DNA of 64,000 nt from Acetivibrionales bacterium. Its GTDB lineage: Bacteria > Bacillota > Clostridia > Acetivibrionales > DTU013. The notes below the pieces were generated by a model. It had not been told where the DNA came from. It ran no database searches and saw only the letters and a program-made list of their open reading frames with translations. Every line of letters starts with the position of its first letter. The stretch's first letter is position 1. The stretch is from positions 238,589 through 302,588 of the forward strand of contig JBMNKL010000001.1 in NCBI GenBank assembly GCA_050952225.1, in the 5' to 3' direction. The position numbers and the translations under genes are program-made. Positions 28,652 through 32,264 of the stretch are shown here, one piece after another.

Positions 28652-28806
28652 CTATACAACTCTTACATTCCCGCCCTGATACTTCGCTTTCGTCGCTTCT
28701 CCACCTCTGATATGCCTCTCTGCCTTGTTCTCCTCGAGCACTGCCCTTACACTGCCGGCAAGTTCGGGATTTACTTTAAGAAGCCTCTCAGTGACATCCT
28801 TGTGTA
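28652..28806 (-). CDS. spoIIID: spoIIID 3' segment (codons 38-87 of the reconstituted gene)
   Basis: Minus-strand reading gives ...(I)HKDVTERLLKVNPELAGSVRAVLEENKAERHIRGGEATKAKYQGGNVRVV* with stop at 28654-28652. This matches the C-terminal half of SpoIIID (B. subtilis ...STVHKDLTERL...RHLRGGEATK...). It has no start codon or RBS of its own. Confidence 0.85.
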
Positions 28807-28829
28807 TTGTGTTCAGCATCGGTGTCGGT
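28807..28829. repeat. element-end inverted repeat (recombinase-proximal end)
   Basis: Plus strand TTGTGTTCAGC-ATCGGTGTCGGT. The last 12 nt are the perfect reverse complement of 31972-31983, and the whole 23-mer matches the other end at 18/23. Confidence 0.75.
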
Positions 28830-28840
28830 TTTGTTACAGT

Positions 28841-30415
28841 TCAATGATGCTCCCGGAATATGTCGGATAGCCGGATAACGTAGTTCAGCCCTTCCATGTG
28901 TTCATCGATATTAAAACAGACGTAGATTTCCTCTCCGGACATCACCCTGATTTCCTTTACGATTTTTTTCAAATCGTTATTATCTATGCTTTCGGTAAAT
29001 CTGAAATTATCAAAAGCCTCCCTGAACCTTTTCAGGCATTCCCTGGTATGCCTGCTGAGCTCCCTGGTTTTGTCCGCACTGTTCAGTTTAAAGCTGAGCT
29101 TTTCAATCTCCGCGTTAACAGGCAGCATGTCCTGTTTTGCCTCCTCCATCGGTATCAGCCCGTCCAACGCCAACTCTTTCAAACGTTCGCGCCTGGCCGT
29201 GAGTTTCTCAAGCTGCTCCCTTGCTTCCTCAAGGTCATAGCCCTCGCTTGCCCGGACATATTCCCTGACCAGCGCGCTGCATTTTCGCTCTACTGACTCG
29301 AAGAAGGCGGCTTTATCACGTATGAGGCCGTTAAAGAGCCTGTCCAGTCCCTCTTTAAGCATGTCCTCATTTACCCTCGCGTATTCCGACTCGCAGCGGT
29401 TCTTCCCGTAAGCGCTCCTCTTTGAGCAAGTCCACCATACATATAAATGCCCGTTTGGCGAGTATCTCCTCTGGTACCGCCGGAAGGAAAAACCGCATGA
29501 TCCGCATTTAATCAGGTTGGAGAACAAGTGCTTCTCGCTCCTCCTGGTAAACGCGCAGTTGTATGCTTCGGCATTTAGCTTCATCTGCTCCTGTGCCTTA
29601 TAAAACTGCTCATCCGAGATTATGCGAAATTCCGGCCTTTCGACGACATACCATTTACTTTCAGGATTGTTAACCCTTTTATTGGTGAATATGTCTACGC
29701 TGCTCTGCTTTCCGTTTATAACACGGCCTATGTATATTTCATTTTTCAGTATTTTACCGACGGCCGTCTGCGACCAGTTGCAGCTGGGCTTTCCGTTCAC
29801 CGGCCTTTTGGTTTTAACCCCGCTCTGATACAAGTAGGAGGCAATCCTGGCCATGCCCCATTTTTCCTCGGTATAAAGGTCGAATATTTTGCGGACCCAT
29901 TTGCTTTCTTCGTCATTAGGGACAAGGTTGTAACGGTCAATCCTGTCATAACCGAAAACAAAGTTGGGCACCCTCCCCTTTTCCTTGCCTAACTGCTTGC
30001 CAAACTTGACCTTTTCCGAAATACGCTGGGACTCGCTCTCAGCCAGCATCGCCATCAGGTTTAAAGTAAAGCTGTCAATATCCTTGCCCTCACCCATATT
30101 GACAAGATGCAGGCTGACCCCGTAGGAATTCAGCTCCCTTGTAACGGTGATAAAATCCAGCGTGTTCCTGAAGAGCCTGCTGATATCCTTTACATAGAGC
30201 TTCTGAAACTCAGCGCGTTCAGCTGCCTTTCGCAAGCGCTGCAAGTCCTTCCTGTTCTGCATCTTTGTAGCCGACTTGCCCTTGTCGCAATAAACGGCTA
30301 CCAGCTCATCTCCCCTGGCAGGTATATACTTTTCAAAAAACTCACGCTGGTTTTCCAGCGAGCTTTGCTGTTCTTCCTTATCGGTACTGACCCTGATATA
30401 CGCGGCAGCCCTCAT
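28841..30415 (-). CDS. large serine recombinase (SpoIVCA/serine-integrase class)
   Basis: 524 aa. The N-terminal resolvase catalytic domain has AAYIRVSTDKEEQ (nucleophile Ser) and ISRLFRN. It is followed by a recombinase domain (WGMARIASYL, WSQTAVGKILKNEIYIG), a zinc-ribbon Cys cluster (CGSCG ... WWTCSKRSAYGKNRC) and a long coiled-coil C-terminus. The stop lies 11 nt from the 12-bp terminal repeat. Confidence 0.92.
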   Translation of the reverse strand: MRAAAYIRVSTDKEEQQSSLENQREFFEKYIPARGDELVAVYCDKGKSATKMQNRKDLQRLRKAAERAEFQKLYVKDISRLFRNTLDFITVTRELNSYGVSLHLVNMGEGKDIDSFTLNLMAMLAESESQRISEKVKFGKQLGKEKGRVPNFVFGYDRIDRYNLVPNDEESKWVRKIFDLYTEEKWGMARIASYLYQSGVKTKRPVNGKPSCNWSQTAVGKILKNEIYIGRVINGKQSSVDIFTNKRVNNPESKWYVVERPEFRIISDEQFYKAQEQMKLNAEAYNCAFTRRSEKHLFSNLIKCGSCGFSFRRYQRRYSPNGHLYVWWTCSKRSAYGKNRCESEYARVNEDMLKEGLDRLFNGLIRDKAAFFESVERKCSALVREYVRASEGYDLEEAREQLEKLTARRERLKELALDGLIPMEEAKQDMLPVNAEIEKLSFKLNSADKTRELSRHTRECLKRFREAFDNFRFTESIDNNDLKKIVKEIRVMSGEEIYVCFNIDEHMEGLNYVIRLSDIFREHH

Positions 30416-30666
30416 CCGCTATCATCCTTCCTGCCGCATTCTCCCGCATTTGTCAATGGCGGGACCCCTGGCTTCCCGCAGCTCGCCCGGTTTCCCATGT
30501 CGCCCGGATTACCATCCGCTGAACCGTCAACAGCATTCCCGGTGATATTTTCAACCACCGAATCAACAATATTTCTTGCAACCCCGGAGGACAACGCCTC
30601 CGATATAATTTCCAGGATGGCAGGATCAAGGTTTTCTTTCGTGTTGATTGGCTGAGCTTGTCCCAT
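30412..30666 (-). CDS. 84-aa acidic hypothetical protein, translationally coupled to the recombinase
   Basis: Its stop overlaps the recombinase ATG by 4 nt (ATGA). The sequence MGQAQPINTKENLDPAILEIISEALSSGVARNIVDSVVENITGNAVDG... has a helical acidic N-half and a Gly/Pro-rich tail. The RBS context is poor and an alternative frame exists (see rejected list). Function unknown. Confidence 0.4.
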   Translation of the reverse strand: MGQAQPINTKENLDPAILEIISEALSSGVARNIVDSVVENITGNAVDGSADGNPGDMGNRASCGKPGVPPLTNAGECGRKDDSG

Positions 30667-30695
30667 CTCCCTACCCCCAACGTTGTCTCCTTTTT

Positions 30696-30726
30696 AATGT
30701 ATATTTCCTGGACGGGGGATTTATTC
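30696..30726 (-). promoter_or_regulatory. weak sigma-E-like promoter candidate upstream of the small ORF/recombinase pair
   Basis: Gene strand: GAATAAA, 16 nt, TATACATT. The -10 matches CATACAHT at 7/8 and the -35 fits xxATAxx. The spacer is 2 nt longer than the 14 nt I recall for the B. subtilis sigma-E consensus. Confidence 0.2.
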
Positions 30727-30830
30727 TTATGCCAGCATCCGCCTGCGTGAAAAGATCCGCCTGTATATTTAGCGCACTTCACTTTATCAGCCCTGATTAT
30801 CACTGGCTCGCACATGTCTATGCCATCATA

Positions 30831-30860
30831 ACAAAAGGGAGAATCAGCATTCTCCCCTTT
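30831..30860 (-). terminator. intrinsic terminator after the SDR gene
   Basis: Gene strand GGGAGAAT-GCTG-ATTCTCCC followed by TTTTGTT, 40 nt after the SDR stop. Confidence 0.6.
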
Positions 30861-30901
30861 AATGTACTGGCCTGTTCACTTAAAACCATATATTTATATG
30901 C

Positions 30902-31663
30902 TTATCTCGACGCGTATCCGCCATCTACCTGAATCACGGCCCCGCTTAAATAATCAGACGCGGCGGAAGCAAGGAATATCACGGCACCTTTCATATCCGA
31001 CGGCTCTCCCCATCTGCCGGCCGGGATGCGTGACAAAATATCCCGGTTGCGTTCTTCGTCGTTCTTAAGTGCCATGCACATATCTGTCGCCATATATCCG
31101 GGAGCAATGGCATTTACATTTATGCCTTTGGATGCCCACTCATTCCCCAGGGTTTTTGTCATTTGGGCTAGACCGGCCTTGCTCGCTGTATAAGCCGGTA
31201 TTAAAATTCCTCCGAAATAGATACTCATCGAAAGAATATTTATTATCTTACCCTTCCCTTGCTTCAGCATTTCACGCCCCGCCAGCTGACAGAGAATAAA
31301 TGCTGACCGCAAATTCACGTTCATAATATCATCAAAATCACTCATTAAAAAATCTTCGCTGTTCCTCCTGCGTTGAATGCCTGCGTTGTTTACCAATATG
31401 TCGATCTTTCCGCCAAGCAAATCAAGCGCCTCTTTAAAAACACGCCTTGTATCCTCCTCATAAAGAAGATTGCCCCTTACAGCGTGTGCAGGATATCCGG
31501 CGGCACGAAACTCGCCGGCCTTCTTTTCAGCCTTATCCGAGCTTCCTGTCAAAACCACCTCGGCACCTGCTTCTAAAAGACCTTCCGCTATGCCGCTTCC
31601 CAGTCCGGTTCCTCCGCCTGTGACAAGTGCTTTTTTCCCAGTCAAATCAAACAATTTCATCAT
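30902..31663 (-). CDS. short-chain dehydrogenase/reductase (KduD / gluconate-5-dehydrogenase-like), cargo of the element
   Basis: 253 aa, classical SDR: VTGGGTGLGSG (TGxxxGxG), LVNNAGI, catalytic YTASK (YxxxK), IAPGYMATDM, and a C-terminal VIQVDGGY. Confidence 0.9.
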   Translation of the reverse strand: MMKLFDLTGKKALVTGGGTGLGSGIAEGLLEAGAEVVLTGSSDKAEKKAGEFRAAGYPAHAVRGNLLYEEDTRRVFKEALDLLGGKIDILVNNAGIQRRRNSEDFLMSDFDDIMNVNLRSAFILCQLAGREMLKQGKGKIINILSMSIYFGGILIPAYTASKAGLAQMTKTLGNEWASKGINVNAIAPGYMATDMCMALKNDEERNRDILSRIPAGRWGEPSDMKGAVIFLASAASDYLSGAVIQVDGGYASR

Positions 31664-31962
31664 CTATCATCTCCAGTCGCTAAATATATTATCATTGCTA
31701 ACTACACCATAAACCACGTTTCTTAGCATATACAGTGCGCTTAACAAGCCTGTCCATCGCTTGTGATAGATAAGATTTATGACATCGGTCATTATATTAC
31801 GTACCTGGTGCTATGCAGTGTGCAAGGATATTCTTATGACCAGGATGGCGAGAAAGCCTATATGTCAACAGTATTATACCACCTTTGGATACGCATAACA
31901 AGCAAGCCTTCGAATCCGCCGCTTGTCTGTGCAACCCTCGAAACAGCTGCCGGTGCCGGTCT

Positions 31963-32109
31963 TCAGCGGCGACCGACACCGATCCTTAACACCGTGTGTA
32001 CGGTGCTTTTGCTGATTCCAAATTTCTTAGCGGCCGCCCTTACGGTCGCTTTTTCCTCAATAATGTAATTTGCCAATTCTATAGCCCTCTCTTCAATATA
32101 TACCTTCAA
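31963..32109 (-). CDS. spoIIID: spoIIID 5' segment (codons 1-38) running into element sequence
   Basis: TTG start at 32109 with a GAAGAGGGGG RBS 9 nt upstream. It encodes (M)KVYIEERAIELANYIIEEKATVRAAAKKFGISKSTVH, the conserved SpoIIID N-terminal HTH. After His38 it reads 10 unrelated codons (TVLRIGVGRR) and stops at 31963. Genuine spoIIID sequence ends at 31995. Confidence 0.85.
   Translation of the reverse strand: MKVYIEERAIELANYIIEEKATVRAAAKKFGISKSTVHTVLRIGVGRR
31972..31994. repeat. element-end inverted repeat (spoIIID 5'-proximal end)
   Basis: Plus strand ACCGACACCGAT-CCTTAACACCG. The first 12 nt are the perfect reverse complement of 28818-28829. It sits 11 nt from the core copy, the same spacing as at the other end. 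Confidence 0.75.
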
Positions 32110-32235: not shown

Positions 32236-32264
32236 TATATATGCCGTCTGCGCCGTCTATATGA
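32236..32264 (-). promoter_or_regulatory. sigma-E-like promoter candidate for spoIIID
   Basis: Gene strand: TCATATA, 14 nt, CATATATA. The -35 fits the xxATAxx heptamer, the spacing equals the 14 nt I recall for the B. subtilis sigma-E consensus, and the -10 matches CATACAHT at 6/8. It lies about 125 nt upstream of the TTG start. Confidence 0.3.

Follow-up and report, generated by a model that had tools for sequence, protein, structure and literature searches.

Elements that interrupt sporulation genes

The closest described counterparts of the locus considered here are the skin, SPbeta and gin elements, all three of which excise in the mother cell (PMC5025042, PMC4191935, PMC5595907). Excision of skin in C. 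difficile requires CD1234, a small and acidic protein of 72 amino acids that is expressed in the mother cell and has a sigma-E promoter, and in both B. subtilis and C. difficile the regulator SpoIIID helps to turn on the skin recombinase or its factor (PMC5025042). The known factors of this kind are, like the small open reading frame described below, devoid of motifs, and they are similar to it in size and charge, as seen for CD1234 (isoelectric point, pI, of 5.5), GirX of 42 amino acids and the yin candidate of 53 amino acids. Our locus lies in a stretch of 64,000 nucleotides from an Acetivibrionales bacterium (assembly GCA_050952225.1, contig JBMNKL010000001.1, positions 238,589 to 302,588 of the forward strand), the whole of which was analysed and is referred to below as the window. 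Here spoIIID itself is split by an insert of 3,194 bp with all of its genes on the spoIIID strand, and we hold it probable, at about 0.82, that this insert is a minimal gene-intervening element moved by a large serine recombinase (LSR), that its ends are the P and P' halves of a 52-bp attP fused to an attB in spoIIID, and that it excises in the mother cell.

The sites used by such recombinases are well described. The minimal attP of SPbeta has been measured to be 52 bp long with arms of 25 bp that differ by three mismatches, and the corresponding attB is without symmetry (PMC5499854). In the structure of the LI integrase bound to attP it is the zinc-ribbon domain that reads a motif at positions 16-24, the inner part of the half-site being read by the recombinase domain, and the model based on this structure has the outer motif recur in attB, shifted 5 bp inward (PMC3783163).

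Geometry of the element ends

The two junctions of the element share the sequence TGTGTA at 28801-28806 and 31995-32000, exactly where an earlier note on this DNA had placed it, and the identity between the junctions extends by not a single base to either side. The same note had described a 12-bp block 11 nt inside each copy of this core, and indeed ATCGGTGTCGGT at 28818-28829 and its exact reverse complement ACCGACACCGAT at 31972-31983 are found at that distance. Its figure of 18/23 for the symmetry of the arms was a miscount, recounting of the 23-nt arms giving 19/23, and when the arms are counted around the central dinucleotide 20 of 25 positions match. The further proposal that the joined ends form a 52-bp imperfect palindrome, with its dyad centre between the third and fourth base of TACACA on the gene strand, is borne out as well, since the joined ends are composed of 25 + 2 + 25 positions with arms that are symmetric at 20/25 and with CA as the central dinucleotide. 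The parts of the putative sites are as follows.

28778..28802, minus strand: B' half-site, forming the 3' arm of attB within spoIIID and taking up positions 2-26 counted from the centre, asymmetric with respect to the B arm
28803..28804, TG on the plus strand and CA on the gene strand: central dinucleotide of the recombinase-proximal junction attR, placed by the dyad centre of the joined ends
28805..28829, minus strand: P half-site, the end adjoining the recombinase gene, a 20/25 match to P' with its outer block at 28818-28829 (ACCGACACCGAT on the gene strand)
31972..31996, minus strand: P' half-site, the recombinase-distal end, reverse complement of P at 20/25 with its outer 12-bp block at 31972-31983
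31997..31998, TG on the plus strand and CA on the gene strand: central dinucleotide of the distal junction attL, placed on the same basis as that of attR
31999..32023, minus strand: B half-site, forming the 5' arm of attB within spoIIID, with an inner part, GCACCGTA, similar to inner P and P'

The predicted 52-bp attP corresponds to positions 31972-31998 of the window joined to 28805-28829 and reads ...GATGCTGAACACAATA-CA-CACGGTGTTAAGGATC... across its junction, and the junction of the predicted attB reads ...AGCAAAAGCACCGTA-CA-CAAGGATGTCACTGAG... The size of this attP equals that of the minimal attP of SPbeta, and the perfect 12-bp blocks occupy positions 15-26 of the half-sites.

The symmetry of the ends is far above chance. 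The binomial probability of 19 or more matches out of 23 is 1.1e-8, 2,000,000 pairs of positions drawn at random from the window gave a mean of 6.2 and a maximum of 19 matches out of 25, never 20, and with the register displaced by -6 to +6 bases the score stays at or below 12/25 as against 20/25 at register 0. Furthermore, the P/P' pair ranks first in a search for inverted repeats between 28600 and 32200 (21 nt, 90%), and the exact 12-mer occurs only twice in the 64-kb window, both times at the element ends. The arms on the gene side match at 7/23, which is the chance level and agrees with the weak attB symmetry already noted; attB has little symmetry and shares with attP the central dinucleotide and a limited inner part of the arm, as is known for such sites.

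Two side observations concern the same stretch. One of the 2,000,000 random pairs reached 19/25, which hints at a further inverted repeat somewhere in the window, and attL holds a local palindrome, CACCGTGTGTACGGTG, at 31990-32005 on the plus strand, a consequence of CACCGT being common to the inner arms of B and P'. A consensus scan calls this palindrome terminator-like on the plus strand, probably incidentally.

Related loci share one target codon

A scan with one genome per species yielded 544 relatives, and the analysis was continued with the best 78 loci. At 70 of these 78 loci the 3' half of spoIIID follows directly after the recombinase and is split at the same codon (T-x-H-K-D), and in all 70 the element end stands in an ungapped register to the His38 codon. 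The outer block is ACCGACACCRAT in the window's own clade and ACCGTTCYAWTT, at the same distance, in a distant clade with 36-40% recombinase identity. Both junctions could be compared for 13 loci, two of which were added from a separate contig search, with elements of 2.5 to 7.3 kb and a shared core of 2-15 bp. In 13/13 loci the two junctions have in common the CA with which the His38 codon begins, and no other sequence is shared throughout; at four loci (L088, L013, L089 and L010) the junctions share no base beyond CA. It lies on the exact dyad of the joined ends in every one of the 13, with attP arms that match at 14-24/30 as against 7-10/30 for attB.

The comparison with homologous elements suggested in the earlier note hence finds the arms symmetric about CA in all 13 two-junction loci, and the proposed crossover dinucleotide gains support from its place at each dyad centre. 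The 6-bp shared core is present here as described, but its length is incidental, as it varies from locus to locus and CA alone is constant. Likewise, the general reading of the ends as a serine-recombinase site is supported by the encoded LSR, by the 52-bp size, by the related loci and by the free attP sites in phage contigs described below. The predicted attP of the window is an imperfect inverted repeat of about 50 bp around a predicted, non-palindromic 2-bp crossover, with which 12 further loci agree.

Within the half-sites, A10, C6 and T3 are common to all four and the outer block is specific to the element arms. The arms co-vary, as P and P' of the same element match at a mean of 17.8/25, against 10.8/25 when P and P' are paired across clades. 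In the distant clade, the B' arm (59 loci; spoIIID codons ...T-E-R-L...) gives a peak of 4.68/9 at a shift of +5 as against about 2 elsewhere. In keeping with the shift model, the outer motif of this clade, CCGTTC, is found again, exactly 5 bp nearer to the centre, when the 3' arm of attB is read as its reverse complement. At one locus (L026, 5540-5900) the element is reversed, and its proximal arm meets the 5' half of spoIIID, in reverse complement, through TG and at the same CA, an orientation that would be expected from a flipped central dinucleotide in a near-palindromic attP.

Free and empty sites

A pattern built from the distant-clade site (outer blocks, A10, C6 and CA in a fixed register, with an estimated 0.2 or so chance matches) was used to scan viral contigs, and six IMG/VR contigs of 24-126 kb match it with a contiguous P-CA-P'. 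In all six a homologous recombinase (34-38% identity) ends at this attP and spoIIID flanks are absent, and three of the six also carry a small open reading frame (ORF) of the kind described below. The unintegrated form, with P and P' placed about CA, consequently exists in nature for this family of recombinases. The two contexts examined, those of L094 and L099, contain phage genes, namely for an endolysin, a DNA polymerase, a ligase, a helicase-nuclease and a thymidylate synthase, and in one phage contig the inner P' arm equals spoIIID over 16 nt.

The counterpart on the gene side is a syntenic empty site in another species (L092), which has an identical gene neighbourhood, an intact spoIIID and no insert. 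Its DNA is colinear with the two halves of the window, which overlap solely at TACACA, and it holds one copy of the core, within coding sequence. Metagenomes were scanned with an IUPAC pattern that covers attB, attP, attL and attR of the window's element, and the eight loci recovered comprise five intact spoIIID genes of other organisms, two attL sites of other elements and one unrelated sequence. A 6.4-kb record from a human faecal sample (L093; GenBank MT838016.1, 'Bacteriophage sp.') was considered as an excised circle and rejected, the 3' half of spoIIID being attached to it; this unverified phage record with a recombinase of the family is an integrated bacterial copy.

The interrupted gene

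The split gene is spoIIID, on the minus strand, in the canonical neighbourhood murA-spoIID-M23 peptidase (SpoIIQ-like)-spoIIID-mbl-flagellar rod, in which spoIID, the M23/SpoIIQ-like gene and murA are intact. The parts of the gene are these.

28652..28804, minus strand: spoIIID 3' part, codons 38-87 plus TAG, beginning at the CA with which the His38 codon opens
31997..32109, minus strand: spoIIID 5' part, with a TTG start, codons 1-37 and the CA of codon 38
32236..32264, minus strand: sigma-E-like promoter upstream of spoIIID, TCATATA-N14-CATATATA, a putative assignment read from the sequence

When joined at the core, the halves give an in-frame spoIIID of 87 codons, so that a coding sequence is interrupted and its open reading frame restored by precise removal, as is the case for the known sporulation-gene intervening elements. 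The spliced product of 87 amino acids matches the Pfam SpoIIID family at 4.8e-42 and the NCBIfam equivalog TIGR02844 with 133 bits (cut-off 111.5), and many intact orthologues, that of L092 among them, are of identical length, at 90% identity or less. Unspliced, the 5' half reads on into the element as ...STVH-TVLRIGVGRR-stop. The split point, ...SKSTV-H38-KD..., lies in the helix-turn-helix region, and attB is predicted to span codons 30-46, the region of the DNA-recognition helix (...SKSTVHKD...). The ratio of nonsynonymous to synonymous substitution rates (dN/dS) for both halves between the window and its closest relative, L088, that is between two interrupted alleles, is 0.076; the halves are under strong purifying selection and the gene must therefore be reassembled. 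The yardstick for the upstream promoter was kmATATT-14-CATACAhT, which we take to be the sigma-E consensus, and transcription from this promoter would enter the element as long as it is unexcised.

Genes carried by the element

Apart from its ends, the element consists of a recombination unit and a cargo module.

28841..30415, minus strand: LSR gene, 524 amino acids, with the Pfam domains Resolvase, Recombinase and Zn_ribbon_recom
30412..30666, minus strand: small acidic ORF, 84 amino acids, pI 4.2, overlapping the recombinase start by 4 nt
30695..30726, minus strand: conserved promoter-like motif GAATAAA-N13-AAATATACATTA upstream of the small ORF and the recombinase gene
30729..31949, minus strand: window-specific cargo module, a segment absent from the closest relative L088
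30838-30857, minus strand: terminator-like hairpin in the cargo module, from a consensus scan
30902-31663, minus strand: KduD-like short-chain dehydrogenase gene, from Pfam and NCBIfam, the KduD match being under the curated cut-off
31873-31901, minus strand: sigma-70-like promoter of the cargo module, from a consensus scan

The recombinase has the domains PF00239, PF07508 and PF13408, and Ser10 is invariant among 15 homologues, as are R8, V9 and T11. Its AlphaFold model (mean predicted local distance difference test score of 79) has long helices at 350-469, and this helical pair probably represents the expected coiled-coil motif. The best Foldseek matches of the model are the cryo-electron microscopy structures of serine integrases 9dxd and 9dxh (SPbeta-type; E 5e-23), and full-length matches also include the PhiC31, Bxb1 and LI integrases. 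The protein hence shows the architecture of an LSR, with a catalytic serine, a recombinase domain and a zinc ribbon with its coiled coil. The outer block of P is 12 nt away from the stop codon of its gene. Most relatives have a recombinase ORF that runs through the P arm, so that the outer block is translated as T-D-T-D/N, and in some homologues (P0111, P0114, P0117 and others) it continues in frame into the 3' half of spoIIID, a read-through that gives rise to recombinase-SpoIIID fusion proteins with PF12116 in gene calls.

The small acidic ORF is the only other conserved gene of the element. In the close clade its core, LDPAILxxIxxALSxGVAxxIV, is kept directly upstream of the recombinase, with sizes that range from 49 to 95 amino acids and a pI of 4.1-5.5 (computed for three close-clade members), and a possibly related small ORF (KLNYRFHNPN...TADYILK...) is found in about 40 distant-clade loci and in phage contigs. 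Judged by its position, size, charge and conservation, it is a candidate recombination directionality factor.

The closest relative (L088) has a recombinase of 88% identity, the same synteny and an element of 2.5 kb, and nucleotide homology to the window is confined to 32289-31950 and 30728-28566. At the distal end the homology reaches 31950 and so takes in the last 45 bp of the element, namely the whole P' half-site and about 20 nt, and the second segment contains the promoter-like motif, the small ORF, the recombinase and the proximal arm. The cargo between the distal arm and the recombination unit varies in nearly every locus. Examples (L001, L002, L013, L025, L050, L058, L087 and L089) include flavin reductase-rubredoxin, AAA_14/DUF4143 and AAA_21 + RloB, as well as AAA_15 + DUF4435, N6 methyltransferases, Schlafen/AlbA_2 and a large cluster that is restriction-modification-like, and much of this cargo resembles anti-phage defence genes.

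Promoter motifs and a proposed mechanism

In eight close-clade loci (the window, L001-L006 and L013) the motif upstream of the small ORF takes the form GAATAAA-N13-(A/C)AATATACATTA with an identical gap of 13 nt, and many distant-clade upstream regions have GACTATT-N14-CATAGTAAT or a close variant. The spacing at 30695-30726 presumably fits neither the sigma-E nor the sigma-K consensus. Mother-cell promoters of sigma-E and sigma-K have an ATA motif at -35 and a -10 of the CATA type (PMC3789822), and the close- and distant-clade motifs both resemble such promoters, an assignment that we infer from their letters. At several distant-clade loci (L020, L022, L025, L041, L047, L050, L058 and others) the motif GACTATT-N14-CATAGTAAT is followed by (T)GGACAA(A/G) at most 60 nt upstream of the small ORF. 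The sequence GGACA[AG] occurs in 22/39 distinct distant-clade upstream regions as against 42/780 control windows. GGACAA resembles a SpoIIID-binding box near the transcription start and could allow reconstituted SpoIIID to repress the excision factor.

On the mechanism that we propose, dimers of the recombinase would bind attL and attR, which would then be brought into synapsis together with a directionality factor, a part for which the conserved small acidic ORF that precedes the recombinase gene is the candidate. That such a factor would be needed for excision is suggested by analogy with skin, SPbeta and gin. Staggered cuts of 2 bp would be made at the CA that opens the His38 codon, where cleavage in the window's organism is predicted by the position of the dyad, and rotation and religation would yield a circle with attP and an in-frame spoIIID of 87 codons. 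The trigger would most likely be in the mother cell, by way of a sigma-E-type promoter before the small ORF and the recombinase gene. Production of SpoIIID would thereby be placed behind an irreversible DNA rearrangement. Since excision cannot make use of SpoIIID at this locus, its control would have to lie with sigma-E alone.

Alternative explanations

A number of observations weigh against excision by an LSR as proposed here. The collections searched hold no direct evidence of recombination: the metagenome scan recovered neither a circle junction nor an empty site of the same organism, the protein collection contains no intact SpoIIID of 100% identity (the best being 90%), and two attP patterns for the window's own clade gave zero matches in the viral contigs. 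In the 14 close-clade loci, the window included, the zinc-ribbon motif does not recur in attB at the expected 5-bp inward shift. The small ORF has no family match in Pfam, NCBIfam or PHROG, and its role as a directionality factor is a guess. The motif at 30695-30726 has a spacing about 2 bp longer than what we take to be the canonical sigma-E form, and most of the related loci are metagenome-assembled genomes that are phylogenetically related, the locus counts not being counts of independent events.

The sites could also be real without serving a developmental switch. The element would then be what is left of a temperate phage, or a satellite of one, and spoIIID no more than a conserved integration site dispensable for growth, and excision, if it took place at all, would follow other cues or go on at a low constitutive rate. 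That the family includes phage contigs with a free attP would fit this origin, as would the cargo, which is variable and often defence-like as in mobile islands, and the fact that the sigma-E label of the internal promoter is a matter of resemblance with a non-canonical spacing. We nonetheless find it unlikely, since the strong purifying selection on both halves of spoIIID requires regular reconstitution in a lineage that needs SpoIIID, and since a -10 motif of the mother-cell type precedes the small ORF and the recombinase gene in the eight close loci and a comparable motif, with the standard spacing of 14 nt, is found in many distant-clade upstream regions; the characterised analogues skin, SPbeta and gin furthermore all excise in the mother cell.

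It is very unlikely that the locus is a dead relic, in which spoIIID has been inactivated, sporulation lost or another copy taken into use, and the repeats are functionless leftovers. This would account for the absence of an excision product from every collection searched, and the organism is known only as a metagenome-assembled genome, but the recombinase ORF is intact with all catalytic residues present, the 12-bp blocks are still perfect, both gene halves show the low dN/dS of 0.076 against L088, the surrounding sporulation genes are intact and the arrangement persists in at least 70 species-level genomes. A transposon with terminal inverted repeats and TGTGTA as a 6-bp target-site duplication was likewise considered, as superficially a direct repeat does flank inverted repeats, and was rejected as improbable in the extreme. 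There is no DDE transposase and the LSR is the only recombinase, the inverted blocks do not abut the direct repeat but are inset by 11 nt, the core varies between 2 and 15 bp in relatives unlike the duplication made by a fixed stagger, the insertion codon is the same in 70 loci, and the single copy of the core in the empty site L092 is coding sequence.

What the locus adds

We conclude that the site is an ordinary attP/attB pair of an LSR and that the element is a further representative of the sporulation-gene intervening elements known from skin, SPbeta, gin, vfbin and yin. Understanding of the LSR enzymes is hence unchanged by it and the site architecture is that of the textbook; what is gained is a precise definition of the site, with a 52-bp attP, an attB inside spoIIID and a predicted CA crossover. 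As for the target, spoIIID is not among the genes in a 2023 list of known intervening elements, and a full-text literature search found no description of the sites, factor or distribution of spoIIID elements. Elements that split spoIIID are present in at least 70 species-level Clostridia genomes, including human-gut isolates of Lachnospiraceae and Oscillospiraceae, and the arrangement explains why spoIIID can appear missing or fragmented in the annotations of such genomes.

The cassette may be one member of a large and essentially undescribed family of spoIIID-splitting elements that ranges from full temperate phages to two-gene cassettes of 2.5 kb, with gating of the cascade at the sigma-E to SpoIIID step, new small directionality factors, feedback through the SpoIIID-box-like GGACAA in the distant clade, and defence or metabolic cargo, a wider picture for which we see the odds as evenly balanced. 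If true, an irreversible DNA rearrangement would control the mother-cell cascade at a point one tier higher than that at which skin acts. In the systems studied, SpoIIID helps to turn on skin excision; a gate on SpoIIID itself would act earlier and would have to be wired in another way. Members of the family occur widely among Clostridia of the gut and the environment, cultured carriers being [Ruminococcus] torques ATCC 27756, Dysosmobacter segnis BX15 and Dorea amylophila, and with their natural co-variation of site and recombinase they would provide orthogonal LSR/att pairs ready for use, along with a candidate directionality factor of compact size.

Comparison with known systems

SPbeta is an active phage of 134 kb with a 16-bp core and an AA crossover, unlike the 3.2-kb element of the window with its 6-bp core and predicted CA. 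Structurally, the recombinase of the window is matched best by the SPbeta-type integrase, the aligned structures having about 17% sequence identity, and SprB is a small acidic directionality factor, to which the small ORF may be likened. The SprA/SprB system likewise has a 52-bp attP with 25-bp arms about a central dinucleotide and an attB without obvious symmetry (PMC5499854). With the LI integrase of the A118 family (PDB 4KIS; PMC3783163) the bipartite half-site is shared, the zinc-ribbon motif lying at positions 16-24 there and the outer block at 15-26 here, although the sequences of the motifs are unrelated.

The gin element, found in gerE of Bacillus cereus ATCC10987, is likewise a small element that is not a prophage and that splits the small gene of a mother-cell transcription factor (PMC5595907). 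It combines the LSR GirC with GirX, a tiny factor of 42 amino acids without motifs that was found by conservation among elements (PMC5595907), and, as at our locus, a short consensus that also occurs in the gene is enclosed by an imperfect inverted repeat (27 bp in gin), the central dinucleotide being the predicted point of cleavage. It differs from the present element in that the target here is spoIIID, one tier earlier in the cascade, with another core sequence, and in that there is a single recombinase gene, whose product is only distantly related; furthermore, excision of gin has been shown in vivo and in vitro, whereas the window's element is known from sequence alone. A skin-like element in spoIIID of Ruminiclostridium cellulolyticum has the same target gene in a related clostridial lineage, but its existence was noted in one sentence, with sites, crossover, accessory factor and distribution left undescribed (Galperin et al., bioRxiv 10.1101/2022.02.25.481979).

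The skin elements in sigK, with SpoIVCA in B. subtilis and CD1231/CD1234 in C. difficile (PMC5025042), resemble the present element in having the LSR gene at the edge, by the 3' half of the interrupted gene, and in their variable cargo, the recombination unit alone being shared among elements. They differ in that at our locus spoIIID itself is interrupted, and excision must here be independent of SpoIIID.

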